Source: Candidatus Limnocylindrales bacterium | GTDB taxonomy: Bacteria; Chloroflexota; Limnocylindria; Limnocylindrales; CSP1-4 | Assembly: GCA_049521175.1 (NCBI GenBank) | Contig: JBEKPB010000003.1 | Location: forward strand, 6,704-70,703 | Reading direction: 5' to 3' | Length of the DNA stretch: 64,000 bases | Shown: in pieces, positions 3,544-61,761 of the stretch | Position numbering within the stretch: position 1 is the first letter of the stretch | How the letters are laid out: each line of letters opens with the position of its first letter | The notes under the pieces: model-generated | Databases searched by the model: none | The model's input: only the letters and a program-made list of their open reading frames with translations | Told to the model about the DNA's origin: nothing | Program-made: the position numbers and the translations under genes

Positions 3544-3552
3544 GGCCGGGGC

Positions 3553-5325
<1,773 letters not shown>

Positions 5326-15064: not shown

Positions 15065-15673
15065 CTAGCGATCCCCTTCGATCCAGCCCTGTTTTTGGGC
15101 GACGCGCACGAGCGAGGTCCGGCTCGTCACGTCGTAGCGGTCGAACATCCGCCGGAGCTGGCTTTCGATGGTCTTCACTCGCAGCGACAGCTGTTCGCCG
15201 ACCTCGGCGTTGCTGAGGCCCTCCGCCACGAGGGCCAGGATCTGGGCCTCGCGAGGCGTCGGCGGGCGGAGCGCCGTGCGCGCCGAACGGCGGACGACGT
15301 CGGGAAAGGCGCTGCCGCCGGCAGCGACCTTGCGCACGGCCGTGAGAATCTCCTGGATGGCCGCCATCTTCGAGAGGTAGCCCTTCGCTCCGTGCTCCAT
15401 CGCGGCCGCGTAGAAGCTCGGGTACGAGTACGCGCTCAGCATGATGAATGCGGGGCCAGGCGTGTGCCGCGCGAGGATCTCCAGCCCGTCCACGGTCTCG
15501 CCCAGGCGGATGTCGCACAGAACGACGTCCGGGTGCCGGGTCTCGATCAGACGATCGGCCTCGACTGCATCCCGGGCCGTCCCCACGACGGTAACGTCGA
15601 GCTCGCCGCGCATCAAGGCGGTGAGACCCTCGGCGATGGCGGGATGATCCTCGACGATCCCCAGCCGGATCAC
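15065..15673 (-). CDS. NarL/FixJ (LuxR)-family response regulator
   Basis: REC domain (D...DVVLCDIRLG) plus C-terminal LuxR HTH (REAQILALVAEGLSNAEVGEQLSLRVKTIESQL). The start overlaps the kinase stop by 4 nt. Confidence 0.85.
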   Translation of the reverse strand: MIRLGIVEDHPAIAEGLTALMRGELDVTVVGTARDAVEADRLIETRHPDVVLCDIRLGETVDGLEILARHTPGPAFIMLSAYSYPSFYAAAMEHGAKGYLSKMAAIQEILTAVRKVAAGGSAFPDVVRRSARTALRPPTPREAQILALVAEGLSNAEVGEQLSLRVKTIESQLRRMFDRYDVTSRTSLVRVAQKQGWIEGDR

Positions 15674-33575: not shown

Positions 33576-34073
33576 ATGGCAATGCCAGTTCTGCACGCCA
33601 AGCCACTCGCGCCGACCGACGACAAGCGCTGGAAGATCGTTGAGACCCGCATGCGCCGGATGGGCGACCGCCCGGCCGCACTGATCGAGGCCCTCCACGC
33701 CGCCCAGGAGGCGTTCGGGTATCTCGACACCGACGCCCTCCACTTCGTCGGCGACACGCTTGGCGTTCCTCAATCGCGCGTATACGGCGTGGCAACCTTC
33801 TACTCGTTCTTCATACTCAAGCCGCAGGGCGAGCACACCTGCGTGGTTTGCACAGGGACCGCCTGCTACATCAACGGCGCGAAGGAGATACTGGCCGGTC
33901 TCGATCGGTCACTCCACGTCAAACCCAAGGAGACCACTGCGGACGGCAAGATTTCGATCCTGACGGCGCGCTGCCTCGGTGCCTGCAGCCTCGCGCCCGC
34001 CGTCATCGTCGACGGCGACGTCAAGGGCAAAGTCACCGCCGGCGAGCTCGTTGCCCAACTGGAGGCGATGTGA
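33576..34073 (+). CDS. hoxE: NAD-reducing hydrogenase diaphorase small subunit HoxE-like (NuoE-family 2Fe-2S thioredoxin-like ferredoxin)
   Basis: Trimmed to ATG (MAMPVL...) with GGAAAG RBS. Cys ligand pattern C..C...C....C typical of NuoE/HoxE; ATGTGA overlap with the next gene. Confidence 0.75.
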
Positions 34074-35722
34074 GCGAGATGCCCGCCGTGGCGCGACCCA
34101 ATCGCCGCCGAGCCGCGGACGGAACTACCGAGGGTCGGCCGCGCGCGTCTGCGTACGTGTGCGAGGCCGCCAGCTGCATGTCGGCACAGGCCCACGACAT
34201 AACCCTCCGTCTCGGCGAGCGTTGCGCCGAGGCCGGCCTGACCGATGTGTCAATCAAGCGAGTCGGCTGCCTCGGTCTTTGCGCCGCGGGCCCGCTCGTC
34301 GAGATCGCCGAGACGGGCAAGCTCTTCGACCGTGTCACGCCAGACAACGTGGACGGCATCGTCAGGGCCCTCAAGCACGTCAAGCCCGGCGACACGCGCC
34401 AGCCGCAGGGCCCCTTCTTCGAGAAGCAGCTCAGGGTCGCAACCGAGAACCTCGGCCGGATCGACCCCGAAAGCCTCGACGACTACATCGCTCGGGGCGG
34501 ATACGAGGCCCTCCAGCGAGTGCTGTCCGAGCTGACCTCGACCGAGGTCCGCGACGAGCTCACGAAGAGCGGTCTACGGGGACGCGGCGGCGCCGGCTAC
34601 CCCGTCGGGCTCAAGTGGACGACCGTGGCCAAGGCGCAGGGAACCCAGAAGTACGTCGTGTGCAACGCCGACGAGGGCGACCCGGGCGCGTTCATGGACC
34701 GCAGCGTCCTCGAGAGCGACCCGTTCCGAGTCCTCGAAGGCATGACCATCGCCGCCTTCGCGGTCCACGCCACCGAGGGCTACATCTACTGCCGCGCCGA
34801 GTACCCGCTGGCGGTGTCCCGGCTCCGCACGGCCATTCGGCTGGCACAGCGCGCCGGATATCTCGGGACTGGCATCGCCGACACCTCGTTCAACTTCGAC
34901 ATCCAGATCAGGCTCGGCGCCGGCGCCTTCGTATGCGGCGAGGAGACCGCGCTGATCGCATCGATCGAAGGCCGCCGCGGCACGCCTCGCCCGCGCCCGC
35001 CCTATCCGGCGGTCCAGGGGCTGTGGGACTGCCCCACCTTGATCAACAACGTCGAGTCCTTCGCCAACGTGCCCACGATCCTCCGCAAGGGTTCGGAGTG
35101 GTACTCCAGCATCGGCATAGGGAAGAGCAAAGGCACCAAGGTCTTCGCTCTTGCCGGCCGCATCGTGAACACCGGGCTGGTCGAGGTCCCGATGGGAACG
35201 ACTCTGCGGGAGATCGTCTACGACATCGGCGGCGGCATCATCGACGGCCGGCCGTTCAAGGCGGTCCAGACCGGGGGCCCATCGGGCGGCTGCATCCCGG
35301 CCGAGTTCCTCGACACGCCCGTCAGCTACGAATCCCTGATCGAGCTCGGCTCCTTCATGGGTTCCGGCGGCCTGATCATCATGGACGACACCTCGTGCAT
35401 GGTCGACGTCGCCAAGTACTTCATGGATTTCTGTCGCGAGGAGTCGTGCGGAAAGTGCGTCCCTTGCCGCGTCGGCACCACGCAGTTGTACATGCTCCTC
35501 GACCAGATCACCCGCGGCGAGGCCACCCTCGACGACCTGGCTCAGCTCGAACGCCTGGCCGGAATCATCCAGAAGACCTCGCTCTGCGGCCTCGGCCAGG
35601 GGGCGCCCAATCCGATCTTCAGCACGCTGCGCTACTTCCGGGATGAATACCTCGCTCACATCGTCCACAAGGTCTGTCCCGCCGGCGTCTGCACGATCAC
35701 ACGCCCGGAGGTGACGGCATGA
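34070..35722 (+). CDS. hoxF: NAD-reducing hydrogenase diaphorase subunit HoxF (NuoF-like, NAD/FMN binding, 4Fe-4S)
   Basis: GTG/ATG start 34070/34079. [20 protein letters not shown]-binding and FMN glycine motifs, and C-terminal CGKCVPCR 4Fe-4S motif (SLBB domain). Confidence 0.85.
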
Positions 35723-36435
35723 CCACCGTCTTCACCTTCCAGATCGACGGCAAGGACGTTGCCGGCATGGAAGGCCAGACAGTCATGGAGGTGGCCGAGG
35801 AGAACGGGATCGACATCCCCGGCCTGTGCCACCTGACTGGGATCCACGATCGCGGCGCATGCCGCCTGTGCATGGTCGAGATCGGCGGCTCATCCAAGCT
35901 GACCGCCGCCTGCACGACCAAGATCGTCGAGGGGATGGAGGTCACGGCCCATTCCGAGCGGCTCCAGGAATACCGGCGGGCAATCACTGAGATGCTGTTC
36001 GTCGAGCGCAACCACGTCTGCGCCGTCTGCGTCGCCAACAACCACTGCGAGCTCCAGGAGACGGCCGCCGAGCTGGAGCTGACCCATTTCGACCTGCCGA
36101 GGATCAACCCTAAGCTCGACATCGACGCCAGCCACCGGCTATTCGCCATCGACCACAACCGCTGCATCCTGTGCCTGCGCTGCGTTCGCGTGTGCGACGA
36201 GATCGAGGGCGCTCACACCTGGGACGTAATGCACCGCGGACTCGAGACCCGCGTCCAGACGGACATGGGCATCCCGTGGGGCGAGTCGACGACCTGCACC
36301 AGTTGCGGGAAGTGCGTCCAGGTCTGCCCGACCGGTGCCCTCTTCGAGAAGGGACGCGCGGTTGCTTCCGGCAGCAAGCATGAGCGACCCTTCCTGCCGT
36401 GGCTCAAGGTCGTGCAAGAGGAGCGTGGGCTGTGA
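35719..36435 (+). CDS. hoxU: NAD-reducing hydrogenase subunit HoxU (NuoG N-terminal-like 2Fe-2S plus 4Fe-4S ferredoxin)
   Basis: ATGA overlap with hoxF. 2Fe-2S ferredoxin N-domain ([18 protein letters not shown]) and two CxxCxxCxxxCP clusters. Confidence 0.85.
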
Positions 36436-36962
36436 CCAAGCCGCGCGTCGCTACGGTTTGGCTCGATGGCTGCTCGGGCTGCCACATGTCGCTGCTCGAC
36501 CTGGACGAGCGCCTGCTGGACATCTTCGAACGGGCAGACCTCGTGTACAGCCCGCTGGTCGACTTCAAGGACTATCCCGAGGACGTTGACGTCTGCCTCG
36601 TCGAGGGCGCCGTCTCTAGCGACGAGGACCTGCACAAGATCAAGATGGTCCGCGAGCGGACGAAGACGATCATCGCCTTCGGCGACTGCGCGGTGACGTC
36701 CAACGTCCCCGGGATGCGCAACCCGATCGGCGTCGGGCCCCTGCTGGACCGCTCATACATCGAAAACGTGACCATGAACCCGCAGATCCCGTCGCGGGTC
36801 GTGCCCAAGCTCCTGCCGACCGCGCAGCCGGTCCATCGCGTCGTAAAGGTCGACGTCTTCCTGCCCGGCTGCCCGCCCGATGCCGACCTCATCTACACCA
36901 TGCTCGATGACCTGCTGGCCGGTCGCGTCCCCGACGTCGCCGGATCCAGGTTCGGTCGCTGA
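36432..36962 (+). CDS. hoxY: [NiFe] hydrogenase small subunit HoxY (group 3d)
   Basis: GTGA overlap with hoxU. WLDGCSGCHMSLLD proximal-cluster Cys motif and C-terminal GCPP. Confidence 0.8.
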   Translation: MTKPRVATVWLDGCSGCHMSLLDLDERLLDIFERADLVYSPLVDFKDYPEDVDVCLVEGAVSSDEDLHKIKMVRERTKTIIAFGDCAVTSNVPGMRNPIGVGPLLDRSYIENVTMNPQIPSRVVPKLLPTAQPVHRVVKVDVFLPGCPPDADLIYTMLDDLLAGRVPDVAGSRFGR

Positions 36963-36972
36963 CGGGAGCCCC

Positions 36973-38394
<1,422 letters not shown>

Positions 38395-38437
38395 TGAAAG
38401 CCGGTTAGGCGGCCCGGCGGAGGCGAGTGGCGGCGCG

Positions 38438-38917
38438 ATGAATGGCGGCCCCGAGGGAACGCTCATCGTCGGCTACGGGAATGCCCTTCGGGGCGACGAC
38501 GGCATGGGCTGGCATGCGGTTCAGCGCCTGTCCGAAGATCGGCGACTGAGTGGTGCTCAGGTGCTCTGGCGGCACCAGCTCACGCCGGAGCTCGCCGACG
38601 ACCTCAGCAGAGCGTCGCTGGCAGTTCTGATAGACATCGATGTCGAGCTCGAGGCCGGCGCCGTCTCCGTCCGCCGCCTGGACTCTGCCCCGGATACCGG
38701 ATCGGCGTGGTCCCACCACATCGAGCCGGCGTCGTTGGTTTCGCTCGCGCACGAGCTTTACGGTGCCACGCCGGCCGTATTCGTGGTGAGCGTCGGGGCG
38801 GGCTCGCTGGAGGTCGGCGATCGCCTGTCGCCGGCGGTCGAGCGGGCGCTCCCGGAAGTGGTGGACGCCGTCGTCGCCATCGTCGCCGGGCACGGGGCCC
38901 GCGCCAGCGACCTCTAG
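38438..38917 (+). CDS. hoxW: Hydrogenase maturation endopeptidase (HoxW/HycI family)
   Basis: Trimmed to ATG (MNGGPEG...). GYGNALRGDDGMG and conserved Asp/His metal ligands. Confidence 0.75.
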   Translation: MNGGPEGTLIVGYGNALRGDDGMGWHAVQRLSEDRRLSGAQVLWRHQLTPELADDLSRASLAVLIDIDVELEAGAVSVRRLDSAPDTGSAWSHHIEPASLVSLAHELYGATPAVFVVSVGAGSLEVGDRLSPAVERALPEVVDAVVAIVAGHGARASDL

Positions 38918-39352: not shown

Positions 39353-39660
39353 TCGGCGGATCGCTCACACCATCGTCTGCCGAACGCGGCCGAGTCTGTG
39401 GGCAGCGTCCCGATCGCCCCACGGCAACTGGTCGAGCATGCCTCGGTCGCGCTCCACGGCCCTGACCCGAGCATGGGAGGACCACCAGGCGGGCGAGCAC
39501 CCGCCGCCTGCCACGTGCCGTCCGATAGGAGCCGCCGGCGTCCCGGACCGCGCACTCCGACGATCGCATCGACCGCTTTCAGGCAATCCTCAGCACGATT
39601 GCCGAACCTGTGCCCGGAGGATTCTCCGTCCAGGCGGCGAGCCCGGAGTTCCACTGCTCG

Positions 39661-40599
39661 ATGACTCAGTTGCAGGACCAGCCACGCCCGCCCGTTCGCA
39701 GGTCATGGTCGAGGCCGCTTTCCCGGATTCGGAACCGGATACGCTGGGCCGCGCCGTTCGCCCTGGGCGTGCTGGCCACTTTCATCGCGCTCAACCTGTA
39801 CGGCGCGGCGAGGCCCGCGACGCAGTCCTTGACCCAGCAGGACGTGAACCAGGCCATTTCACAGGCGCTCGCGTCGCAGACGCCCGGGCCGGCACTCTCT
39901 CAGGAGGCGTATGCGGCCATCGCACCTTCGCTCGTCCTAATCCAGACTCAGCAGCCGCGCAGCGGCGCCTCGCCCGGCGGTAGCGCGTCGCCGGGGACAA
40001 GCGTCTTGCCCGGCGCAAGCGCGCAACCGAGCCTGGGCACCAGCACCGCAACCGCCGCTCCAGACGGCGTGCTGGGGAGTGGTGTCGTCATCGACGCAAA
40101 CGGCGACATCATGACTTGCCTCCACATCGTCGCCAACGCGACGTCGATCCAGGTGACCTTCGCCGACGGCACGAAGTCGGCGGCCACGATCTCTTCGACG
40201 CTCCCCGAAAGCGACATCGCGGTTCTGCAGGCCACGCAACGTCCGGCCAAGATCGTCCCCGCCGTGCTCGGCAACCCCAGGAGCGTCCAGGTTGGCAGCG
40301 AGGCCTTCGTGGCCGGCAATCCGTTCGGGCTGTCCGGGTCGTTCACGTCGGGAGTCGTCTCCGGGCTCGACCGCTCGTTCCAGCTCCCCAACAACGGCCC
40401 GCTGCTCCAAGGCCTGATCCAGGTCGATGCGGCGGTAAACCCCGGTAGCTCGGGCGGGCCTCTCGTCAACCGCGCCGGCCAGGTCATCGGGATCGTCACC
40501 GCCCTGATCAATCCCACCAACGAAGGCGTCTTCATCGGCATCGGGCTGGCAGTGCCAATAGACGTAGCCGGCGGAGCCGCCGGGCTGCCACCGGACTAG
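39661..40599 (+). CDS. Trypsin-like (S1C/HtrA-type) serine protease, membrane-anchored, no PDZ
   Basis: N-terminal TM; catalytic blocks (GSGVVID...CLHIV; D-I-A-V-L; GNPFGLSGSFTSGVVSG; GSSGGPLV). Alternative upstream ATG at 39610. Confidence 0.7.
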   Translation: MTQLQDQPRPPVRRSWSRPLSRIRNRIRWAAPFALGVLATFIALNLYGAARPATQSLTQQDVNQAISQALASQTPGPALSQEAYAAIAPSLVLIQTQQPRSGASPGGSASPGTSVLPGASAQPSLGTSTATAAPDGVLGSGVVIDANGDIMTCLHIVANATSIQVTFADGTKSAATISSTLPESDIAVLQATQRPAKIVPAVLGNPRSVQVGSEAFVAGNPFGLSGSFTSGVVSGLDRSFQLPNNGPLLQGLIQVDAAVNPGSSGGPLVNRAGQVIGIVTALINPTNEGVFIGIGLAVPIDVAGGAAGLPPD

Positions 40600-40653
40600 A
40601 CCGCCGGCGGACCGATCGGTCCGCCGAAATGAGGCCTCAGGAGGTCGATTCAG

Positions 40654-41670
<1,017 letters not shown>

Positions 41671-41740
41671 CGGCCCGGTCTGGACACCTTCGCCCGGCCC
41701 GGACGAGGAGGCTCGCCCGGGGCCGGGCGGCCATGCCCCA

Positions 41741-42766
41741 GTGCGCCCACTTTTCGCACCGGCGCCGCCCGGCCCGACGCCGTCTGATCCGGCCGTACCC
41801 CGGCCCGCACCCGGCGCGCCCGGCACCACCCAGGTGCGGCCTCCCTCTGCCCCGCCCGGAGTCACCCCGGCCCGGTCGCTCTCCGCCCCGGAACGAATCC
41901 TCCAGCGCCTCGACTGGAAGGTCATCCGCCGTCTCGACGGCGTTCTCCAGGGCGACTACCACAGCCTCTTCCGTGGCAACGGCATCGATCTGGTGGACCT
42001 GCGCGAATACCAGCCCGGCGACGACGTGCGGGCCATCGACTGGAACGTAACGGCGCGGATGGACACGCCGTACGTCCGCGAATACGTCGAGGACCGGGAG
42101 ATCACGGCCTGGTTCCTGCTCGACCTGAGTCCCTCAATCGATTTCGGCAGCGTGGAATCGGAGCGCGTCAAGCGATCAGTCCTGATCGATTTCGTCGCCA
42201 CTCTGGCGCGCCTTCTGACCCGGCGCGGCAACCGGGTAGGCGCGATGTTCTACGGCAGCGCCCTCGAGCGGATCGTTCCGGCGCGAGGCGGACGCGACCA
42301 GGTCCTGCGCCTGATCGACGACCTGATGGACCAACCGCGCCTCTCGAGCGCCCCATTCACGGACCTGGCCCCGCTGCTCGAGGCCGGACATAACACGATC
42401 AAGCGCCGCTCGCTCGTGTTCGTCATCTCCGACTTCATCAGCGTGCCGGGTTGGGAGCGGCCGATGAGCCTGCTCAACCGCCGCCACGAGGTCGTCGCCG
42501 TGCGTCTCTCGGACCCGCGCGAGGTCGCGCTCCCGGACGTCGGGCCGATGATCATGGAAGATGCCGAGACCGGCGAACAGCTGTATGTGGACACCCACGA
42601 CGCCGCGTTCCGGCGCCGGTTCGAGGAGGCGGCGCGCCGGCGCGAGGCCGAGGTATCCGGGGCGTTCAAGCGATCAGGCGTCGAGGCTCTCGCGCTTTCG
42701 ACCGAGGATGACCTCGTGCGCGCCATCGTGCGCATGGCAACCCTCCGCCGCCGGGGCCGGAGGTAG
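41741..42766 (+). CDS. DUF58-domain protein (MoxR-associated, VWA-like)
   Basis: DLREYQPGDDVRAIDWNVTAR motif; Pro-rich N-terminus, so the true start may be later. Confidence 0.8.
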   Translation: MRPLFAPAPPGPTPSDPAVPRPAPGAPGTTQVRPPSAPPGVTPARSLSAPERILQRLDWKVIRRLDGVLQGDYHSLFRGNGIDLVDLREYQPGDDVRAIDWNVTARMDTPYVREYVEDREITAWFLLDLSPSIDFGSVESERVKRSVLIDFVATLARLLTRRGNRVGAMFYGSALERIVPARGGRDQVLRLIDDLMDQPRLSSAPFTDLAPLLEAGHNTIKRRSLVFVISDFISVPGWERPMSLLNRRHEVVAVRLSDPREVALPDVGPMIMEDAETGEQLYVDTHDAAFRRRFEEAARRREAEVSGAFKRSGVEALALSTEDDLVRAIVRMATLRRRGRR

Positions 42767-42769
42767 CCG

Positions 42770-43789
42770 ATGTCGTTCATCTGGCCGTTCATGCTGCTCA
42801 CCCTCGCGCTGATCCCGCTCGGCGTCGCGCTCTACTACCTGATCGAGCGTGGGCGGCGCCGTCGCCTCGCGGCCTACGGCGGGTCACTAGTCGCCCAGGA
42901 AACCACTCACCGCACGACGGGGCTGCGCGGCCGCGTCCCGCCGGCGCTGCTGGTCTGCGGGTTGATCGTCATGTCCGTGGCGATGGCCCGGCCGCAGGCC
43001 GTGATAAGCCTGCCGCGGCAGGAGGGCACGGTCATCCTTGCCTTCGACGTCTCCGGCAGCATGGCCGCCACCGATCTCAAGCCGACGCGAATGGATGCCG
43101 CCAAGGCGGCCGCGAAGGACTTCGTGTCGAAGCAGCCATCGAGCGTCACGATCGGGGTGGTGGCGTTCAGCGACGGGGGCATCTCGGTCCAGACGCCTAC
43201 CAACGACCAGGCCACCGTGCTGGCGGCGATCGATCGCCTGGCGCCGCAACACGGAACGTCGCTCGGCCAGGGCATCCTCGCCTCGCTCGACGCCATAGCC
43301 GTCGCAGAGGCCGGCCCCTACGCCAACAACTACTACTCCAACGTCTCGCCCGCGCCGACCGCGGCACCGACGCCAACGCCTGTGCCGTCCGGGACCCACG
43401 CTCCAGCAGTCATAGTCCTACTCAGCGACGGCGAGAACAACGAGAACCCGGACCCGCAGGCGGCTGCCCAGACGGCGGCAGATCGGGGTGTGCGGATCTA
43501 CACGGTGGGCATCGGCAGCCCGTCGGGCACCACGGTGACCATCGATGGCTTCCAGCTCCACACCCAGCTCGACCAGGCCACCCTGCAAGGGATCTCGCAG
43601 ACGACCGGCGGCACCTACTACGCCGCCGCGGACGAGCAGCAGCTCTTTTCGGTCTACGACAACCTCGACACACAGCTGGTCGTCCAGCCCCAGTTGACCG
43701 AGATCACATCGGTGCTGGCGGGCCTGAGCCTGGTGTTGCTCATCGGCGGCGCCCTGACCTCTCTCCTCTGGCTCGGTCGGCTGCTATGA
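42770..43789 (+). CDS. VWA-domain protein, BatA-like (N- and C-terminal TM)
   Basis: MIDAS motif DVSGSM...T and flanking TM helices. GGAGG RBS and a 3-nt gap to the DUF58 gene. Confidence 0.8.
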   Translation: MSFIWPFMLLTLALIPLGVALYYLIERGRRRRLAAYGGSLVAQETTHRTTGLRGRVPPALLVCGLIVMSVAMARPQAVISLPRQEGTVILAFDVSGSMAATDLKPTRMDAAKAAAKDFVSKQPSSVTIGVVAFSDGGISVQTPTNDQATVLAAIDRLAPQHGTSLGQGILASLDAIAVAEAGPYANNYYSNVSPAPTAAPTPTPVPSGTHAPAVIVLLSDGENNENPDPQAAAQTAADRGVRIYTVGIGSPSGTTVTIDGFQLHTQLDQATLQGISQTTGGTYYAAADEQQLFSVYDNLDTQLVVQPQLTEITSVLAGLSLVLLIGGALTSLLWLGRLL

Positions 43790-43802
43790 GGAGGCTTCGC
43801 TG

Positions 43803-44891
43803 ATGGACTTCCTCTGGTCGGATCTCCTCATCCTTCTGCTTATGCTGCCGCTCATGGTGGCCGTATACATCCTGGGTTTGCGCCGGCGGCGCCCGGAGGG
43901 CGTCCGCTATTCGAGCTTGTCCCTGGTCCGCGTCGCGGCGCCGGGCGCGTCGCGGCTGCGGCGGCATCTGCCGTTTGCACTGTTCATCGCCGCGCTCGGT
44001 GCCGCGGTCGTCGCGCTCGCGCGCCCGGTGGCGGTCGTTGCCGTGCCCACGAACCAGACGACGATCATCCTGACGATCGACGTCTCGGGCAGCATGTGTT
44101 CGTCCGACGTCCCGCCCAGCCGTCTCGAGGCCGCCGAAGCCGCCGCGGCCAAATTCATCGACCACCAGGCGTCCTCGACGCGCATCGGGATAGTCGCCTT
44201 CAGCACCTTCGCCGAGCTGGTCCAGGCGCCGACGAACGACAAGCCGACGCTTCTGGCCGCGCTGCAAACCCTCGCCACAGGGCGGCGGACCGCAATCGGC
44301 GACGGCATCCTGGCCTCGATCGACGCCATCGCCGGGGTCGACCCGCTCGTGGCCATGAGCCAGACCGACACGTCGACAGGCACCGCGCCGACGCCGGTGC
44401 CCAAGGGCGATTACGCTCCCGACATCGTCGTCCTGCTCACGGACGGGGCGAGCAACACCGGCACGCCACCGCTCGACGCGGCCCAGCAGGCAGCCGACCG
44501 CGGCGTCCGGATCTACACGATCGGCTTCGGTACCGCGAACGGCGGCAGCCTGAGCCCGACTTGCGCGCCGCAATTCCAGGGTCGCGAACCGGGCGGTGGG
44601 TTTGGCGGAGGCGGGTTCGGCGGTGGTGGTGGTGGCGCCGGCGCCGGCGGAGGTGGGAACTTCCCGCGCGGGATCGACGAGGCCACACTAAAGCAGATCG
44701 CGGCCATGACGGGCGGGACGTACCACCCGGCCACTACCGCAGACGAGCTCCAGAGTGTCTTCGACAACCTCCCGATCAATCTGATCGTCGAGCATCAGAC
44801 GATGGAGGTCAGCGCCGTGTTCGTCGGCTTCGGAGGGTTGCTCGCCGGTCTCGCGATCCTCCTGAGCAAAGCCTGGCGTCCGCTGCCGTAA
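43803..44891 (+). CDS. VWA-domain protein, BatB-like, with a Gly-rich insert
   Basis: MIDAS DVSGSMCSSD; GGGFGGGGFGGGGGGAGAGGGG low-complexity loop; terminal TM. Confidence 0.8.
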   Translation: MDFLWSDLLILLLMLPLMVAVYILGLRRRRPEGVRYSSLSLVRVAAPGASRLRRHLPFALFIAALGAAVVALARPVAVVAVPTNQTTIILTIDVSGSMCSSDVPPSRLEAAEAAAAKFIDHQASSTRIGIVAFSTFAELVQAPTNDKPTLLAALQTLATGRRTAIGDGILASIDAIAGVDPLVAMSQTDTSTGTAPTPVPKGDYAPDIVVLLTDGASNTGTPPLDAAQQAADRGVRIYTIGFGTANGGSLSPTCAPQFQGREPGGGFGGGGFGGGGGGAGAGGGGNFPRGIDEATLKQIAAMTGGTYHPATTADELQSVFDNLPINLIVEHQTMEVSAVFVGFGGLLAGLAILLSKAWRPLP

Positions 44892-47531: not shown

Positions 47532-49307
47532 CTATGCCTCGGCGATCACCCCGATCGAGATCCGGAAACCGGCCCGCCGTTGCAGCGGCGGCATCAGCGT
47601 CCCTTGACCAACCGGCGCGTCACCCGGGAACCAGCGCACCCATTCTTCGTTGAACTCGTCGAACTCTGCCGGGTCGCGCAATGACCAGGCTGCCCAGACG
47701 ACCTTGTCCAGCGAGCTTCCCTCAGCCTCAAGTCTCGCCTTGATGTTGCGCAGGCATTGGCTCGTCTGCGGCTTGATCCCTCCGTCGACGACGTGACCAG
47801 TGTCAGGATCGACGGGTCCCATCGACGATACGTAAACCATGCCTCCGGCCTTGACCGCCCGGCCGTAGCCGATGGAGGGTCGGGATGCATCTGGCGGCTG
47901 AAACGTCTCCCGGGCGGCACGCCTCCGCTTGTCGTGGCGCGCCGGGCCCGGTCGCGTGGGGTCTTCGGCAGGAATCCCGAATTCCCCGGGCGGCAGTGTG
48001 ACCCCGGCTTCCTTGAACCTTGTCATGAAGGTCGGCCGGATCCCGGTCGGCTTGAGCATCCCTTCGATGCGTCCGTCTCGAACGCCGGTCTGCTCGAATA
48101 CGAAGATGTCCTGGGTGAGGATGTTGTCTTCTTCGATCCCGTAGACCTCGGTGATGTTGACGATCTTGCGAGAGCCATCCCTGAGACGGGCCGTATGGAC
48201 GATCAGGTCGACGGCCGAGCTGATCTGCTCGCGGATCGATCGTAGCGGCAGCCGATAGCCAGCCATGAGGATCATCGTCTCCAGCCGGCGGAGCATGTCC
48301 GGCGGGCTGTTCGAATGCCCTGTGGACAGCGAGCCGTCCTGGCCCACCGTCATGGCCTGGATCATGTCCAGAGCCTCGCCAGAGCGGCACTCTCCGACGA
48401 TGATCCGGTCGGGCCTCATATGCAGGGCGTTGCGCAACAGATCGCGGATTGTGATCTCGCCCTCGCCCTCGAGATTTGAAGGCCGGGCCTCCAGCGTGAC
48501 CAGATGCTCCTGGTGGAGCTGCAGTTCGGCTGCGTCCTCGATGGTGATGATCCGCTGATCCTCGGGGATGAATGATGAGAGGACATTGAGAGTGGTTGTC
48601 TTGCCGGAACCGGTGCCGCCCGACACGAAGATGTTCAGGCGGGCTTCCACGCAGGCTCGCAGGAAGTCGAACATCTCGGGCGTGGCGGTGCCGAAGCGGA
48701 TCAGGTCGTCGACGGTGAACGGCTTGGCGGAGAACTTCCGGATGGTGATGACCGGTCCGACGACAGATAGCGGCTCGATGATCGCATTGACCCGCGAGCC
48801 GTCGGGCAGGCGGGCGTCAACCCGCGGGCTCGACTCGTCGATACGCCGACCGATCGGGGCGATGATCCGATCGATGATGCGCATGACGTGGTCGTCGTTC
48901 CGGAAGACGACGTTGGTGAGCTCGAGGCGGCCGTTGCGCTCGATGTACACCTGGTGCGGGCCGTTGACCATGATCTCCGTGATCGTGTCGTCGCGGAGGA
49001 GCTCCTCGAGCGGTCCGAGGCCCCTCGCTTCCGCGATCACGTCCTCGATCAGGCGCAGACGTTCATCCCGCGTCATAGCGAACCCGTCCACGGCGATGAT
49101 GCGGTCGACGATCGCCTCGACCTTGCCGTTGACGTCAGTCGCATCGGCGTCTAGTAGCGTGTCGTAGGCTCTGACGACTTCGTCCTGGAGGCGAGCCCTG
49201 ATGTTGGTCAGCGAATCCGACCGAGCTGCACGAACGAGTCCGACTGCGCCGGGACTCGGGGTGTCGGCCCCCTGCTGCACCCGCTCAATTCGCCGAAGCA
49301 GGGACAT
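47532..49307 (-). CDS. CpaF/TadA-type type II/IV secretion-system ATPase translationally fused to a C-terminal RidA/YjgF-family domain
   Basis: Trimmed to ATG at codon 66 (MSLLRRIERV...) with GGGAGG RBS. T2SSE/CpaF signature (Walker A GGTGSGKTT, Asp and His boxes, RPDRIIVGECR). A continuous reading frame then runs through an ~25-aa linker into an ~115-aa domain matching RidA (YGRAVKAGGMVYVSSMGPVDPDTGHVV...QCLRNIKARLEAEG...FRISIGVIAEA), with no in-frame start codon between. Confidence 0.75.
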   Translation of the reverse strand: MSLLRRIERVQQGADTPSPGAVGLVRAARSDSLTNIRARLQDEVVRAYDTLLDADATDVNGKVEAIVDRIIAVDGFAMTRDERLRLIEDVIAEARGLGPLEELLRDDTITEIMVNGPHQVYIERNGRLELTNVVFRNDDHVMRIIDRIIAPIGRRIDESSPRVDARLPDGSRVNAIIEPLSVVGPVITIRKFSAKPFTVDDLIRFGTATPEMFDFLRACVEARLNIFVSGGTGSGKTTTLNVLSSFIPEDQRIITIEDAAELQLHQEHLVTLEARPSNLEGEGEITIRDLLRNALHMRPDRIIVGECRSGEALDMIQAMTVGQDGSLSTGHSNSPPDMLRRLETMILMAGYRLPLRSIREQISSAVDLIVHTARLRDGSRKIVNITEVYGIEEDNILTQDIFVFEQTGVRDGRIEGMLKPTGIRPTFMTRFKEAGVTLPPGEFGIPAEDPTRPGPARHDKRRRAARETFQPPDASRPSIGYGRAVKAGGMVYVSSMGPVDPDTGHVVDGGIKPQTSQCLRNIKARLEAEGSSLDKVVWAAWSLRDPAEFDEFNEEWVRWFPGDAPVGQGTLMPPLQRRAGFRISIGVIAEA

Positions 49308-49567
49308 GACCCACGCCTCCCGCAAGCTCGTGACATACGGCAAGACGCTGGTGATTCTAGCCCTGGCAAGAGCATGACGCGGCTCAGCCGCGTCGTATCC
49401 GCCCGTTGCGCAGAATGCCTCCGGCCGCCACCGCACAAGCAGACTCTGGCGATGGCCGACGAGATGCTCGGATGGCTGCACGAACTCAAGGTGAAGCTCC
49501 ACCCGAGCGCGTCAGTGAGGGCTCAAGGGTGGGCGGAAGCCTGGACTGGTGCTCGATTAGTTGTTGT

Positions 49568-52072: not shown

Positions 52073-53332
52073 TTATCGGAGATCGCCGGTCATCACCGTC
52101 GGAACGATCGGAGTCAGGTCCGGACCGACCGTCACGGCAACGAGCCGTGCGTTGAAGACAACGAGATTCGAGATCACGAAGATCGGGGATGGGCTGCTCG
52201 ATGGCGTCGTCCAGTTGCGCCCATCAGTAGAGGCCCAGAACGCAACGCCGGAGGAAGCATCCGTGCTCGAACCTGGACTTGCCGCGGTCCCTGCAGTCGC
52301 GGAGAGGGCGCTCAGGACAATCGTCCCTGACAGTTCCGCGCCTGCGCGGATCTCGGTGAAGGAAGAGGTGTAGCCAAGTACGGGCACCGTGGCTCGAGCG
52401 CAGGTCAGGTCATTGCCGCAGGTCAGAATCGCGCTCCCGGGCACACCGTGGCCGAGGACGGCGAGGGTGTTGCGCAGTGGGATCAATTGGCTGGGGTAGA
52501 AGGACGGATCCGACGGCGACTGCGCGAGGCTCCAGACGGCGCCGTCGGGAGAGGTCCATAGCAGGAGGTCGTTGGCGTCCTGCGAGCGACCGATCGCAAC
52601 GAAGCGATCTCCCCAGACGGTCACGTCCACCGCATCTCGGCCAGCTCCCGGCAAAGAGACGCTCCTCCAGCTCGATCCACCGTCGGTCGAACGCCACCCG
52701 GCCGCATTGCCAGAGAAGTCGACCCCGACCGCGACGAGGACGTCGGGCCGGCTTGCGACGCTGAGCATCCGACCGGCCGGCCCTTCGACGCTCGCACTCA
52801 CCCATGTCTTGCCATCGGACGTCCACCAGGCAGCAGTCCGATCGACCCCATCACCCGTCTGCTCGCTGCCCACCAGGACCGCGCTGCCGCGCCCGTTGGA
52901 GGAGGCGTCGGCGAAGGTCGAGCTTTCCGTCCCGGGTGATTTGACTGCGTCGATCCCGGCCTGCCTGTTCCACTTGAGGCCGTCCGTGCTCGCCCAGATG
53001 CCCTCGGAAGCGCTCATGGTCCCGTCGCCCACCCCGTTGGCCGAGGCGATCAGGTAGAGCTGGTCCCCGATCGACACGAGCCGCTCGAACGCCACGGCCG
53101 TCGGCGGTGAAATGTCGCCCGACTGCCACGAGATCGCCGTTGCCAGGCCGGAGTTCGTGGGACCCTGGCTTCCGCCCCGAGTCGCGACGACCACCAATCC
53201 GACCAGAACCGTTAGGGCGGCCGCCAGCCCAACCACGGAGAGCGACGCACCCCGCAGCGAAACCCGATGTGCCACTGGTGCGGCCAATTGAGCCTCCTCT
53301 GCCTCAATCGACATTCGTCCGTCCGCAGACAT
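52073..53332 (-). CDS. Membrane-anchored BNR/Asp-box repeat (beta-propeller) protein
   Basis: N-terminal TM; at least five S-x-D-G-x-x-W Asp-box repeats (STDGLKW, WTSDGKTW, RSTDGGSSW, WTSPDGAVW, ASTDGRNW). Confidence 0.65.
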   Translation of the reverse strand: MSADGRMSIEAEEAQLAAPVAHRVSLRGASLSVVGLAAALTVLVGLVVVATRGGSQGPTNSGLATAISWQSGDISPPTAVAFERLVSIGDQLYLIASANGVGDGTMSASEGIWASTDGLKWNRQAGIDAVKSPGTESSTFADASSNGRGSAVLVGSEQTGDGVDRTAAWWTSDGKTWVSASVEGPAGRMLSVASRPDVLVAVGVDFSGNAAGWRSTDGGSSWRSVSLPGAGRDAVDVTVWGDRFVAIGRSQDANDLLLWTSPDGAVWSLAQSPSDPSFYPSQLIPLRNTLAVLGHGVPGSAILTCGNDLTCARATVPVLGYTSSFTEIRAGAELSGTIVLSALSATAGTAASPGSSTDASSGVAFWASTDGRNWTTPSSSPSPIFVISNLVVFNARLVAVTVGPDLTPIVPTVMTGDLR

Positions 53333-58054: not shown

Positions 58055-58477
58055 TCAGCCACGGGCCCGGGTCGTAGTCCGGAGCCGACGCGTCTGGTCT
58101 GTCAGCATCCGGTACATGACCGCGGGATGGGCGAGCAGGAAGTCGCGAAGCGCCGGCGCGGCCAGGTGCAGGCAACGCATCGGATGCAGCGCCACCACGT
58201 CCGCCGACGGAGGCTCGCCGAGCAGCGCCGAAACCTCGCCAAAGAAATCACCGCGTCCAAGGATTGCGGCGTTGCGACCGCCGGTCCGAACGGCAACCTC
58301 TCCGTCGAGGATCACGTAGAAGCCCGAGCCGGTGAGCCCCTCGCGCAGGATTCGCTCTCCTTCGCCGAACCACACTTCCTCGAACGAATGGGCGGCGGCG
58401 TCCAGCTGCGGGCGGGTGAGGTCGGCGAAGAGGGCGAGCGACCCAAGCTCGTCCGGGAGTTCCAAGAGCTGGGCCAT
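58055..58477 (-). CDS. Stand-alone cyclic-nucleotide-binding (cNMP, CAP-effector-type) domain protein
   Basis: FGEGERILREG...GDFFGEVSALLG phosphate-binding-cassette pattern; 140 aa with no output domain. Confidence 0.75.
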   Translation of the reverse strand: MAQLLELPDELGSLALFADLTRPQLDAAAHSFEEVWFGEGERILREGLTGSGFYVILDGEVAVRTGGRNAAILGRGDFFGEVSALLGEPPSADVVALHPMRCLHLAAPALRDFLLAHPAVMYRMLTDQTRRLRTTTRARG

Positions 58478-58691
58478 GAACCCTCCTCGAAGCGGGGCGG
58501 TCTTGGCGAAACCCTATGTGTGTAGCGCAGGTACCCCTTCAACACAAGGCGCCGACCGCGCTGCGCCGCGATCGTTCCCGTGCGTGCGACCTGGCGCGCC
58601 CCAGGCGCGACGTTCGTTGACTATCCCCGAGGGCGCGGTCAGCATGCGGCCACCCGGGAGCCAGGACGCGACGACAAAGAGGAGATGCCAT

Positions 58692-59120
58692 ATGACGCTC
58701 ACCCCGGACCAGCGCGCCCGTCTGCTGGCCGGCGTTGGGCTCTTCTCCGCGGTGGGCGACGCCGGCCGATCGGCCATCGCCGAGCGTGCTGTCGAAGTCG
58801 ACTTCCCGAATGGCCGGCGGATCGCCCGCCAGGGCGAGATCGAGACCGGCTTCTACATGGTCGTCACCGGCTCCGCAAGCGTGGTTCGAGACGGAGAGGT
58901 CCTAGCTCGGTTGGGTCCGGGCGACTTCTTCGGCGAGCTTTCGCTGCTCGACCGGCAGCCTCGGGTGGCGTCCGTCACCGCCGACGAGCCGACCACGTGC
59001 CTGGCCCTGGCGTCGTGGGACTTCCAGAAGCTGCTCGAATCCGAGCCCGGCGTCGCGCTGGCGGTCCTTCGGGAGGTCGCCCGCCGGCTGCGGGCAGTAA
59101 CCGTGGACCACCACGTCTGA
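58692..59120 (+). CDS. Stand-alone cyclic-nucleotide-binding domain protein
   Basis: Trimmed to ATG (MTLTPDQRARLL...) with AAGAGGAG RBS; GDFFGELSLLD PBC motif; divergent from the other cNMP gene. Confidence 0.75.
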   Translation: MTLTPDQRARLLAGVGLFSAVGDAGRSAIAERAVEVDFPNGRRIARQGEIETGFYMVVTGSASVVRDGEVLARLGPGDFFGELSLLDRQPRVASVTADEPTTCLALASWDFQKLLESEPGVALAVLREVARRLRAVTVDHHV

Positions 59121-59124
59121 CCCG

Positions 59125-61761
59125 ATGCAGCGAACAGTCGACCTCCCGACCGGAACCGTCACCTTTCTTTTCACCGACATCGAGGGCTCGACCCGGCTGC
59201 TGCAGGCGCTGGGTGCCGCATACCCGGACCTGCTGAGCCAGCATCACCACCTGCTGCGGGGCGCGGTCGAGGAAGCAGGCGGGGTTCCTGTGGGGACCGA
59301 GGGCGACTCGCTCTTCGCCGCATTCGACAGCCCGGTTGCCGCGGTCTCGGCCGCTGTGGCGGCGCAACGCGCGATGGCGGGTGCCAGCTGGCCGGGCGGG
59401 ACGGCAGTCAGGGTGAGGATGGGACTACACACCGGCGAGGGTCTGGTTCGCGATGGCACGTACGTCGGCCTCGACGTCCATCGGGCAGCCCGAATCGCGG
59501 CGGTAGGCCATGGCGGTCAGATCCTCATGTCGGATTCGACCCGTGCCCTGGCCGAGCAGAGCCTCCCGGCCGGGGTCGCGCTGCGGGACCTCGGCCGTCA
59601 CCGCCTCAAGGACCTGGCCCAGCCCGAGCGCATCTACGAGACCGTGATCGAGGGCCTCGCTTCTGAATTCCCGGCTCTGCGTTCGCTCGAAGCCGCGCCC
59701 AACAACCTTCCGACTCAGCTCACCAGCTTCGTCGGGCGCGGCCGAGAGGTGGCCGAGGCCAAACGCCTCCTCGGCACGACCAGGCTGTTGACCCTGACCG
59801 GCCCCGGCGGAACCGGCAAGACGCGCCTCGGCCTGCAGCTCGCAGCCGATTCGATTTCCGACTTCGCCGACGGGGTCTTCTTCGTCCCACTCAGTCCGAT
59901 CGAGGACTCCGACCTGGTGGCTCCCGCGATCCTGGTGGCGCTCGGCTTGCGCGAGTCGCCGAACGATCCGCCGGCGAACAAGCTCATCGAGTACCTGCGC
60001 GACCGCCACCTGCTTCTCATCGTGGACAACTTTGAACAAGTCATGCCGGCCGCGCGGTTGATCGGCGACCTCCTCAAGGCCAGCCCCCGCCTGAACGTCG
60101 TCGTCACCAGCAGGGCCACTCTCCACATATATGGCGAGCGCGAATACGCTGTCCCGCCCCTGACCCTGCCACAGCCTGGCGCAGCTATCGACCCTGCCTC
60201 CGTCTCGCAGTACGAGGCTGTCGCACTCTTCATCCAGCGCGCCGCGGCGGTCCGACCGGACTTTCAGATCACGGCCGCCAACGCCCCTGCCGTGGCCGAG
60301 ATCTGCAGCCGCCTCGACGGCCTGCCGCTGGCCATCGAGCTGGCTGCCGCCCGGGTCAAGCTCCTCCCGCCCCAGGCCCTCCTTGCCCGCCTTGGCCAGC
60401 GCCTCGAGGCGCTCGAGGCCGGCTCACGTGACTTGCCGGCTCGGCAACGAACCCTGCGCGGAGCCATTGCCTGGAGCCACGACCTGCTCGACGAGCCGGC
60501 CCGAAGGCTGTTCGCTCGCTTCTCGGTCTTCGTCGATGGGGCGAGTCTGGCGGCCGCGGAGGCGGTGTGCAGCGATGTTGGTCTCGACGTGCTGTCGGGT
60601 CTCTCCGGTCTGGTCGATCAGAGCCTGATACGCCAGGAGGAGACCGACGGAGAGCCGCGCTTCACCATGCTCGCCACGATCCGTGAGTTCGCCCTCGAGC
60701 GGCTTGCCTGGAACGGCGAGGTCGAGGCGATGGCCGGGCGCCATGCCGCCTTCTTCGTTGCGATGGCGGAGGCTTCGGCTCCCGGACTGACCGGCCCGAA
60801 CCAGAAGCGGCTTCTGGACGACCTCGTCCGCGAGAACGGCAACCTCCGGGCGGCGGTCAACTGGTCGATCGAAAGCAACTCAGTCGAGACGGCGCTGAGG
60901 CTGGGCTCTGCTCTGTGGCGGTTCTGGCAGATGCGGGGCATGTTGCGTGAGGGGGCGGCCGTCCTCGAGCGGACCCTGGCGGTGCCTGATCAGGACGGCC
61001 ACCCGCTGGAACGATCGAAGGCCCTGGAAGCCGCCGGCGGTGTGGCGTACTGGCGGGCAGAGATGACCAGCGCAATGGCGTACTACGAGGCTTGTCTGGA
61101 GCTGTGCCGAAAGATCGGCGACCGCCGGGCCATCGCCAACGCGCTCTACAATCTCGGGTTTCCGACGCTGATAAACCGGGAGGACATCCCCAAATCGCGC
61201 GCGGCCTTCGAGGAGAGCCTGGCTATGTACCGCGACCTCGGGGATACGGAGATGATCGCTCGCGTGCTGTGGGGGCTTGGGAACGCCTACTACTTCGGCG
61301 ACGACAACGAGGCCGCCCGAGACACGCTGGTCGAGGATGTCGAGATGCTCCGGCGCATGTCGGACCCTTTCAGCCTGGCCTGGGCGTTCCACACCCTCGG
61401 GCTCGCCTACGACAAGCTGGGCCAGACGGTGGCCCAGTCCGGACCGCTGTGGCGCGAAGCCCTCGAGCACTTCGCCGGCGTGGGAGACATTTCGGGCATG
61501 ACCATCCTGCTTGGAGACTTCGGAATCCTCGCAGCGGCTGAGGGCGACCTGCTGCGGGCGGTCCGCCTGAGCGCCGCGGCCGATCGGCTCGCCCGTACCG
61601 GCGGGACGGAGCTCGGGTCGCTGACCGAGCGCACCACCGCCGTTCATCCGGACACGAGCTCGCTCGACCCGGCGGACGTCGAGGCGGCGCTGAGCGAGGG
61701 CGGACGCATGACCGTCGACGCAGCCGTGGCCTATGCATTGGGGCGAGAGAGTCGTCCATGA
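59125..61761 (+). CDS. Class III adenylate/guanylate cyclase fused to NB-ARC/STAND AAA ATPase and C-terminal TPR repeats
   Basis: Cyclase domain (VTFLFTDIEGST...GLHTGE), P-loop GPGGTGKTRL, hhhhDN Walker B (LLLIVDNFEQV) and TPR-like helical repeats to the C-terminus. Confidence 0.85.
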   Translation: MQRTVDLPTGTVTFLFTDIEGSTRLLQALGAAYPDLLSQHHHLLRGAVEEAGGVPVGTEGDSLFAAFDSPVAAVSAAVAAQRAMAGASWPGGTAVRVRMGLHTGEGLVRDGTYVGLDVHRAARIAAVGHGGQILMSDSTRALAEQSLPAGVALRDLGRHRLKDLAQPERIYETVIEGLASEFPALRSLEAAPNNLPTQLTSFVGRGREVAEAKRLLGTTRLLTLTGPGGTGKTRLGLQLAADSISDFADGVFFVPLSPIEDSDLVAPAILVALGLRESPNDPPANKLIEYLRDRHLLLIVDNFEQVMPAARLIGDLLKASPRLNVVVTSRATLHIYGEREYAVPPLTLPQPGAAIDPASVSQYEAVALFIQRAAAVRPDFQITAANAPAVAEICSRLDGLPLAIELAAARVKLLPPQALLARLGQRLEALEAGSRDLPARQRTLRGAIAWSHDLLDEPARRLFARFSVFVDGASLAAAEAVCSDVGLDVLSGLSGLVDQSLIRQEETDGEPRFTMLATIREFALERLAWNGEVEAMAGRHAAFFVAMAEASAPGLTGPNQKRLLDDLVRENGNLRAAVNWSIESNSVETALRLGSALWRFWQMRGMLREGAAVLERTLAVPDQDGHPLERSKALEAAGGVAYWRAEMTSAMAYYEACLELCRKIGDRRAIANALYNLGFPTLINREDIPKSRAAFEESLAMYRDLGDTEMIARVLWGLGNAYYFGDDNEAARDTLVEDVEMLRRMSDPFSLAWAFHTLGLAYDKLGQTVAQSGPLWREALEHFAGVGDISGMTILLGDFGILAAAEGDLLRAVRLSAAADRLARTGGTELGSLTERTTAVHPDTSSLDPADVEAALSEGGRMTVDAAVAYALGRESRP

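Follow-up and report, generated by a model that had tools for sequence, protein, structure and literature searches.

A Rid-capped CpaF in Limnocylindrales: a variant of the Tad pilus motor with a C-terminal Rid domain

Why should a pilus motor carry a RidA-like domain at its C terminus, and what does it drive where no pilus genes lie nearby? The question is raised by a gene at positions 47532–49307 of a 64-kb stretch of DNA from Candidatus Limnocylindrales bacterium (64,000 nucleotides of contig JBEKPB010000003.1, assembly GCA_049521175.1; referred to here as the window), which an initial annotation had read as an orphan CpaF/TadA-type secretion ATPase fused in frame to a RidA-family domain. 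Tad pili serve in adhesion, surface sensing and biofilm formation, and the switching between extension and retraction by a single CpaF motor is a current open question. The window encodes one protein, composed of a complete CpaF-type ATPase, a linker of about 30 residues and a Rid-fold domain. We refer to it here as the Rid-capped CpaF, a variant of the Tad motor with a C-terminal Rid domain not described before in the searchable literature; a search there for the fusion architecture found no description, in agreement with the annotation's statement that such a coupling had no obvious precedent. Judged from its sequence, the protein is best described as a Limnocylindria-specific, unlinked Tad-motor paralogue that shows three coupled innovations: a disarmed C-terminal Rid domain, a lost trans arginine finger and a relaxed retraction-face arginine.

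The gene is read from the ATG at 49307 within a larger minus-strand open reading frame (47532–49502), a start backed by the N-terminal sequence MSLL.R, which is kept among homologues (M1, L3 and R6). Its layout is as follows.

47532–49307 (−): coding sequence of the CpaF–Rid fusion, 591 amino acids, with the stop codon at 47532–47534
49316–49321 (−): Shine–Dalgarno-like GGGAGG, 8 nt upstream of the ATG, as read from the sequence
49023–49307 (−): N-terminal variable region (residues 1–95) with three long helices (H19–52, H56–74 and H80–95 in the AlphaFold2 model)
47970–49022 (−): CpaF-type N-terminal domain and catalytic ATPase domain (residues 96–446)
47970–47996 (−): LPPGEFGIP (residues 438–446), the motif with which Chloroflexi CpaFs naturally end, and the point of fusion
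47874–47969 (−): disordered linker (residues 447–478), with a predicted local distance difference test score (pLDDT) below 50
47535–47873 (−): Rid (YjgF/RidA) fold domain (residues 479–591), placed by PF01042, PDB matches and pLDDT

Both Pfam families expected of such a fusion score above their gathering thresholds on the 591-residue product: T2SSE (PF00437) at residues 94–374 (E = 3.7e-61) and Ribonuc_L-PSP (PF01042) at residues 477–566 (E = 1e-16; 61.5 bits against a gathering score of 27.3). In the AlphaFold2 model the Rid domain is a confidently folded α/β domain (pLDDT 74–93), and the predicted helices of residues 1–95 are consistent with the three-helix bundle of CpaF. The junction bears out the initial annotation on each point: between residues 447 and 484 there is neither a stop nor a Met, Val or Leu codon from which a separate ridA gene could start, and the ATPase has a normal C terminus, the fusion point being the natural end of CpaF with its LPPxxFG motif. 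In an independent assembly, a Joint Genome Institute (JGI) contig (L082) that is 99.98% identical, with four single-nucleotide polymorphisms over 21.8 kb, the frame and the gene call are the same, and one protein cluster (P0001) is identical to the window protein (100%, rounded).

The uninterrupted frame also recurs far beyond this genome. The same T2SSE and Ribonuc_L-PSP architecture, at about 600 residues, is present in 119 of the 120 best protein clusters (72–87% identity). A species-level scan with one genome per species gave 553 related stretches, of which the best 80 loci were analysed; the fusion is read through to residue ~590 in all 80, is seen once per genome, and is carried almost exclusively by metagenome-assembled genomes (MAGs) named Limnocylindrales, Chloroflexota or Chloroflexia. 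The search for other proteins of this two-domain architecture, which the initial annotation had proposed, thus found it in at least 80 species, almost all of them Limnocylindrales. A census of the Rid domain against 1.84 billion representatives at 50% identity returned essentially one full-length fusion (P0124), which argues that the fusion is a single clade; the remaining matches are fragments, stand-alone Rid proteins and the known 3x-Rid tandem proteins. Fusion contigs with labels outside Chloroflexota include L062 (Acidobacteriota), L066 (Saccharimonadales) and L009 (Pseudonocardiales). L062 shares LCP/RNase PH synteny with Limnocylindria loci and, because of this local match, is probably a mis-binned or mislabelled MAG and not a case of horizontal transfer.

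Columns of the ATPase core are conserved at 0.85–0.94, those of the Rid domain at 0.82–0.97 and those of the linker at 0.64. The ratio of non-synonymous to synonymous substitution rates (dN/dS; Nei–Gojobori, 3003 pairs) comes to 0.22 in the ATPase, 0.32 in the Rid domain, 0.65 in the N-terminal region and 0.79 in the linker, absolute values that are inflated by bias in GC content at third codon positions (GC3) but whose ranking is clear. In at least 80 species both halves of the fusion are intact, and purifying selection acts on them. That two genes were joined by faulty assembly or sequencing, or in a pseudogene now decaying, is a negligible prospect: nothing favours it but the a priori possibility that attaches to a metagenomic contig, and against it stand the recurrence of the frame in the independent assembly, the 119 protein clusters and the 80 species, the purifying selection on both domains, and a linker of constrained length. 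This reading was rejected on the homologue frames, the independent contig and dN/dS.

The ATPase is closest, among solved structures, to Caulobacter CpaF (9e24/8rjf; 402 bits, E = 2e-119, 50% identity over 386 residues), and CpaF is also the top Foldseek match (47% identity, E = 2e-37); against TIGR03819, the NCBIfam model of TadA-family conjugal transfer-associated (helicase/secretion neighbourhood) ATPases, it scores 318 bits, below the cut-off of 373. It has the same three-helix bundle, N-terminal domain and C-terminal domain as Caulobacter CpaF/TadA (PDB 8RJF, 8RKD and 9E24–9E29), and the two share Walker A and B, the Asp-box Glu, R359, H382, the cis fingers and the platform contacts. The fusion differs in having His for R347, mostly Gln for H374, an unconstrained R387 position and a 145-residue C-terminal extension, and in lying outside a tad operon. 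The sites concerned are, in the window:

48597–48620 (−): Walker A motif GGTGSGKT (residues 230–237), with K236 and T237 invariant
48837–48851 (−): loop-8 platform contacts G153-R154-R155-I156-D157 (Caulobacter G204, R205, R206 and D208)
48450–48488 (−): extended pore loop (residues 274–286), including E280 and G283, the counterparts of E331 and G334 in Caulobacter
48420–48422 (−): codon CAT for His296, aligned with R347, the trans (inter-subunit) arginine finger
48339–48350 (−): altered first half of the His box, T320-V321-G322-Q323
48300–48302 (−): codon for Pro336, at the position of the retraction-face residue R387

Conservation at these sites was compared between 119 fused and 83 unfused proteins, 80 of the latter from the metagenome scan, the unfused set being the more diverse. 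Invariant in the fused proteins are K236, T237, E261, E306, R308 and H331, among them residues of Walker A, the Asp box and Walker B and the second His-box His; in Caulobacter numbering, R359, H382 and the cis arginine fingers R217 and R223 are invariant. G204, R205, R206, D208, E331 and G334 of CpaF are predicted to contact the CpaG/CpaH platform (PMC12019362); none of their six counterparts G153, R154, R155, D157, E280 and G283 varies among the 119 fused proteins, and α5/loop 8 hardly differs from its equivalent in canonical CpaFs.

Three sites depart from this pattern. R347, on helix α9, is the inter-subunit arginine finger that contacts the γ-phosphate of ATP; it is reported to be conserved in all type IV filament ATPases, and mutation of its PilT equivalent abolishes twitching (PMC12019362, PMC11300603). 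The position is Arg in 83 of 83 unfused proteins and His in 119 of 119 fused clusters, in 77 of 77 genome loci and in the distant member P0124. The first half of the His box, NTGH in every unfused protein (83/83), reads T (108) or N (8), then T (66), V (38) or I (9), then an invariant G (119), then Q (101) or H (18) in the fused ones. The R387 position is Arg in 81 and His in two unfused proteins; fused proteins have Pro (54), Arg (21), Ala (18) and others there, with an entropy of 2.39 bits, the most extreme of only two among 386 columns that are conserved in unfused proteins yet free in fused ones. The earlier description of the ATPase as complete therefore stands for Walker A and B, the Asp-box Glu and the second His-box His, and does not extend to the trans arginine finger, now His296, or to the altered first half of the His box.

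The Rid domain has been altered in its own way. It matches 48 PDB Rid chains, the best being PH0854 (E = 8e-18) and TTHA0137, both archetypal RidA-type proteins, and its nearest stand-alone relatives, 45–50% identical, are widespread in Acidobacteria and Proteobacteria and annotated as 2-iminobutanoate/2-iminopropanoate deaminases. Where these read YSQAV...PARQG...SIAAIAEA, the fusion type reads YGRAV...PVGQG...QRRAGFRISIGVIAEA. Two features of the domain matter here:

47607–47609 (−): codon for Gly567, at the position of the RidA catalytic Arg105
47574–47579 (−): fusion-specific two-residue insertion R577-R578, before the last Rid strand

Arg105 is essential for imine hydrolysis (PMC4433059). 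The position is Gly in 118 of 119 fusion members and Arg in all 17 of the nearest stand-alone Rid proteins, so that its loss appears specific to the fusion. At the Glu120 position 118 of the 119 members have Ser (Ser584), as does the nearest stand-alone group, and Tyr17 is kept (as Tyr481) in only 72 of 119 (~60%). TIGR00004, the NCBI model for Rid family detoxifying hydrolases, gives the domain 60 bits, short of its cut-off of 106, with profile positions 11–101 of 125 matched and the active-site end left bare; stand-alone relatives score 93–113 bits (P0167, 113 bits). The RidA-family assignment made earlier holds in so far as the Pfam match and the Rid fold are there, and falls short of the TIGR00004 cut-off.

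Compared with archetypal RidA/YjgF/UK114 proteins and the stand-alone group with PARQG...SIAAIAEA (P0166, P0167 and P0401), the fold is the same, at the identity given above, and the C-terminal ...SI(A/G)xIAEA and the Ser at the Glu120 position are shared, whereas the fusion has Gly for S18 and Arg for Q19 besides Gly for Arg105. Specific to the fusion and at least 91% conserved are G482, R483, W538, N540, W541, D550, F552, G567, T570 and the Arg-Arg insertion at 577–578; W538, N540, W541, D550 and F552 are invariant in the fusion only, and at least 92% of fusion members have the insertion, which is missing from 94% of stand-alone relatives. The pattern argues for a pocket that is remodelled with new invariant, more basic residues and not decayed. 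Among Arg-less Rid hits with enough upstream sequence, all are preceded by a CpaF tail except P0131 (266 residues), in which an Arg-less PxGQ-type Rid domain follows hydrophobic, non-CpaF sequence and which may be either a fragment with a frameshift or a fusion of another type.

The initial annotation had proposed that enamine/imine deamination is coupled to the motor, as moonlighting or metabolite repair by a secretion-type ATPase with an active Rid domain. The Ribonuc_L-PSP match above the Pfam threshold, the archetypal RidA-type character of the closest PDB and stand-alone relatives with their imine deaminase annotation, and the purifying selection on the domain are all in its favour. The substitution of Arg105 by Gly567 and of Glu120 by Ser584 in about 99% of the 119 members, the patchy Tyr17, the failed TIGR00004 match with its bare active-site end, and the restriction of the arginine loss to the fusion contradict it, and we regard it as highly improbable. 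As both Arg105 and Glu120 are lost and TIGR00004 is failed, canonical deaminase activity appears unlikely on sequence grounds; the domain probably serves a new purpose, as a module for structure or ligand binding.

Arg-less Rid domains have a precedent in Rid4–Rid7, in which the catalytic arginine is replaced (by Trp in Rid4 and Rid7), Glu120 is kept, and the proteins are presumed non-hydrolysing and of unknown function (Niehaus et al. 2015, PMC4433059). The catalytic arginine is missing in both cases, but the fusion has Gly at the Arg position and Ser where Rid4–7 keep Glu120; by its sequence, the fusion Rid domain appears to derive from the RidA-type group and not from these. The matches also included P0130, P0134, P0144, P0149 and others, of about 400 residues with three tandem Rid domains, which are of the 3x-RidA type described as covalent trimers (Niehaus et al. 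2015, PMC4433059), and larger multi-Rid proteins, P0212 (803 residues, four matched stretches) and P0215 (842 residues, three matched stretches). Separately, the Rid region (47535–47924) matches the middle of PADLOC PD-T4-2_B (E = 1.5e-10, positions 176–267 of 294), which suggests that a Rid-like domain also occurs in this candidate anti-phage protein. A defence-system reading of the fusion was set aside, the PADLOC match being at domain level and on the Rid part only.

Connecting the two domains is a linker whose length is held at 29–34 residues in 149 of 158 members. It contains a basic motif:

47919–47930 (−): basic linker motif K460-x-R462-(W), K-R-R-R in the window and G-K-G-R-W in the family consensus

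The motif takes the form [G/R]-K-x-R-[W/S/F], with K460 invariant in 119 of 119 and R462 present in 112 of 119, and occurs also in the divergent members P0121, P0123, P0124, P0125 and P0141. Unfused Chloroflexi CpaFs terminate 2–20 residues past LPPxxFG, whereas LPPGEFGIP of the fusion runs on into the linker, and the start Met of stand-alone Rid relatives aligns with residue 464. Residues 447–463, about 17 in number, may thus be a former intergenic spacer between a complete CpaF and a complete Rid open reading frame. From this order of CpaF end, spacer and Rid frame we infer that the fusion arose by loss of a stop codon, reading through into a downstream ridA-type gene. The pre-fusion state, cpaF beside a separate rid gene, was seen in none of 80 unfused loci, and the stand-alone Rid relatives belong to unrelated phyla.

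What the motor drives has to be judged from its setting and its relatives. The 64-kb window holds no T2SSF, Flp pilin, A24 peptidase, TadE, RcpC or TadZ gene, so that the absence of Tad genes noted earlier for the vicinity extends over its whole length. Searches with tblastn and a custom T2SSF profile found no T2SSF within 10 kb of the 80 fusion loci, only the positive control being matched; of 62 unfused relatives with downstream room, 50 have T2SSF directly downstream. Clustering of 1058 neighbouring open reading frames gave no conserved operon partner, the best neighbour family occurring in only 13 of 80 loci; the neighbours that do recur have housekeeping roles (LCP, RNase PH, MazG and LeuRS). 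No riboswitch, promoter or terminator signals were found. The closest relative, L001, shares with the window only the gene itself, homology running from 49363 to 47528. At L001 a Flp pilin gene (MFIRTQKGQG/LAEYALILALIAILAIAALGVLSGAINGILTHIASAL) lies at 4985–5128 (+), about 100 nt downstream of the fusion (3073–4887) and on the same strand; no Flp pilin remnant was found downstream of the fusion in the window. Inspection of the neighbourhoods of genes with the same architecture, as first proposed, thus gives no tad setting in 80 of 81 loci and a Flp pilin in L001. In the JBCLC series MAGs (L175–L178:4855–5550), a PhdYeFM antitoxin/PIN toxin pair lies directly downstream of the fusion and TusA/DsrE upstream.

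In a neighbour-joining tree the fusions form a monophyletic clade, whose sisters are three unfused CpaFs of high GC content (L099, L102 and L103); these keep Arg347, NTGH and Arg387 and are directly followed by T2SSF genes. The 90% clusters of these sisters hold NCBI proteins from Candidatus Limnocylindrales bacterium, of the CpaF family and the type II secretion system F family. Loci of the sister type are complete, with a two-component system, Flp pilins, RcpC, TadZ, CpaF (466–471 residues), TadB, TadC and DUF192. Against the unfused CpaFs of Limnocylindrales/Chloroflexota tad loci (L099, L102, L167–L174 and L179), to which it is sister, the fusion is 66–69% identical in protein and 75–80% in DNA; the loci share only the cpaF portion (75–80% nucleotide identity). 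The proteins have in common the LPPxxFG C-terminal motif and HANSP.DML, whereas canonical CpaFs keep the Arg finger, NTGH and R387 and end 3–4 residues past LPPxxFG. Canonical cpaF sits between tadZ and tadB/tadC with Flp pilins upstream; the fusion gene does not. A search for a Limnocylindria TadB, started from the TadB of L081, returned matches that belonged to other Chloroflexi.

Further features of these loci were observed. The canonical locus is preceded by a conserved set of a HisKA_3 kinase, a GerE response regulator and a second HisKA_3 (L167:3719–6854, L168:2207–5226), has a DUF192 gene downstream (L167:13396–13842) and encodes a TadZ with an N-terminal receiver domain. In L081, the 919-residue P0002 (631–3390) has two complete T2SSE domains in tandem and is followed by a separate CpaF (460 residues) and a TadB-like gene; it is a covalent CpaF–CpaF dimer in a Chloroflexi-like Tad locus.

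Because its sister is the unfused CpaF of canonical loci in Limnocylindrales-named MAGs, the fusion is, on sequence, most likely a paralogue of the Tad pilus motor that is accessory and not linked to the tad locus. The label orphan fits it in part: there are no Tad genes in the window, but Limnocylindrales-named MAGs have a canonical Tad locus with an unfused sister CpaF, and L001 has its Flp pilin. The gene could instead encode the sole Tad motor: an orthologue that has left the tad locus and functions in both directions as CpaF normally does, its Rid domain being a minor regulatory add-on. The conserved platform contacts and most of the C-terminal face, the single copy per genome in the 80 species loci, and the lack of a same-genome match with a second CpaF from comparison of whole-genome shotgun (WGS) prefixes and accessions would fit this. 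It is nonetheless quite unlikely, as canonical tad loci in Limnocylindrales-named MAGs have their own unfused CpaF, the fusion clade is sister to the canonical CpaFs and not nested within them, the trans finger is lost and the R387 position relaxed, and a C-terminal fusion blocks retraction in Caulobacter.

Unlinked accessory ATPases are common in type IV pilus systems: PilT/PilU is a case of a second hexameric ATPase that is encoded off the main pilus operon and acts on the same platform. PilT and PilU differ from the fusion: they belong to another clade, carry an AIRNLIRE motif and keep the Arg finger intact. Extra domains, too, can tune such motors, as in MshE-like T2SSE ATPases, in which MshEN binds c-di-GMP; there the regulatory domain is N-terminal, whereas the fusion has a C-terminal Rid domain, which is not known to have been described for such ATPases. 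The general occurrence of unlinked ATPases counts against a further alternative, in which a hexameric ATPase has been repurposed without a pilus platform, as an ATP-dependent sensor or switch or another motor, with Rid as its input or oligomerisation module. This has on its side the missing Tad linkage in the window and in 80 of 81 loci, the constantly shifting contexts, and the altered catalytic apparatus (R347H and the His box); the six invariant predicted TadB/C contacts, hard to explain without the same partner, and the Flp pilin gene of L001 speak for a pilus. We consider the repurposed ATPase unlikely.

A model for the accessory motor draws on recent work in Caulobacter, which proposes that CpaF extends the pilus through its N-terminal face and retracts it by flipping to its C-terminal face. 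R387A is reported there to abolish visible retraction, and mCherry fused to the C terminus to stand sterically in the way of retraction, although pili continue to be formed (Whitfield et al. 2026, preprint 10.64898/2026.02.24.707734). Both CpaF-mCherry and the natural fusion append a folded domain at the CpaF C terminus, on the proposed retraction face; the former is artificial, has no Arg-finger change and has a measured effect, whereas any effect of the natural fusion is inferred, and its linker, unlike that of CpaF-mCherry, is flexible, about 30 residues long and equipped with a conserved basic motif.

In the model, a Limnocylindria-specific CpaF paralogue would have been derived from canonical tad-locus cpaF by read-through into a ridA-type gene, and would now be a self-contained monocistronic gene away from the tad locus. 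Its hexamer would dock on the TadB/TadC platform through the N-terminal (extension) face, alongside or alternating with canonical CpaF. Rid proteins normally form trimers, and the six tethered Rid domains, probably as two trimers, would crowd the C-terminal face, leaving the motor unable to flip into the retraction orientation, as with CpaF-mCherry. With His in place of the trans finger, weaker inter-subunit catalysis would make for a slow or conditional motor, and the remodelled Rid pocket would be a small-molecule sensor or structural cap and not a deaminase. A one-orientation motor is suggested by the place of Rid on the retraction face and by the release of R387 from selection. The model as a whole, an accessory, one-orientation, slowed or ligand-gated Tad motor on the canonical platform, is put forward tentatively, at a little short of an even chance. 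A more specific proposal, for which we hold out little hope, is that a C-terminal basic element (K-x-R-(W), the Arg-Arg insertion or Arg483) gates ATP turnover in place of the trans arginine finger, its position being set by Rid ligand or trimerisation. If true, the motor would run one way under the gating of a metabolite, and would give the superfamily its first known member able to do without the canonical arginine finger.

Several observations weigh against this model. The Flp pilin stands beside the fusion in no other of the 80 loci, the window included (1 of 81 overall), and comparison of WGS prefixes and accession blocks gave no match for a fusion and a canonical tad locus in one genome. 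The β13–β14 turn of the fused ATPases and their C-terminal motif are highly conserved, and, the R387 position apart, their C-terminal face lacks the sequence loss reported for extension-only orthologues; a regulated retraction function may be kept, or the C-terminal face may dock Rid. Occlusion of this face by Rid need not be permanent, the linker being about 30 residues long and flexible. Trimerisation and ligand binding by Rid are assumed by analogy with the family, the inversion model rests on one preprint (10.64898/2026.02.24.707734), and the AlphaFold2 monomer model is moderate overall (pLDDT 67.7).

Elsewhere in the window, a Bat-like MoxR–VWA module that lies 2.6 kb away from the fusion gene and on the other strand (39610–44891 (+)) comprises a trypsin-like protease, a MoxR AAA+ ATPase, DUF58 and two BatA/VWA proteins. 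A cluster at 33848–38917 (+), with a NuoF-like flavoprotein, a 2Fe-2S/4Fe-4S subunit, an Oxidored_q6 small subunit, a NiFeSe_Hases large subunit and a HycI-like protease, resembles a soluble NAD-linked [NiFe] hydrogenase. At 58055–61761, and at L082:188–1253, an adenylate/guanylate cyclase–STAND NTPase–TPR protein (878 residues) and one or two small proteins binding cyclic nucleoside monophosphates could form a cyclic-nucleotide signalling module. At 15065–18939 (−) lies a 1089-residue fusion of CheB methylesterase, CheR methyltransferase, PAS and histidine kinase, with a LuxR-type response regulator downstream. Open reading frames with coding-like GC3 and no Pfam match are found at 52073–53332 (−; 419 residues), 25930–27612 (−; 560 residues) and 19422–20057 (−; 211 residues).

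Limnocylindria are an abundant uncultured lineage of soil and freshwater whose surface biology is, to our knowledge, undescribed; a search of the searchable literature found no description of pili in the class. The fusion family, which at least 80 species have kept, amounts to a natural experiment on the CpaF inversion proposal, and could show how a type IV filament ATPase works or is regulated without the canonical finger. It could also give a Rid-fold domain its first non-enzymatic role, in a family in which the Arg-less members still await a function.

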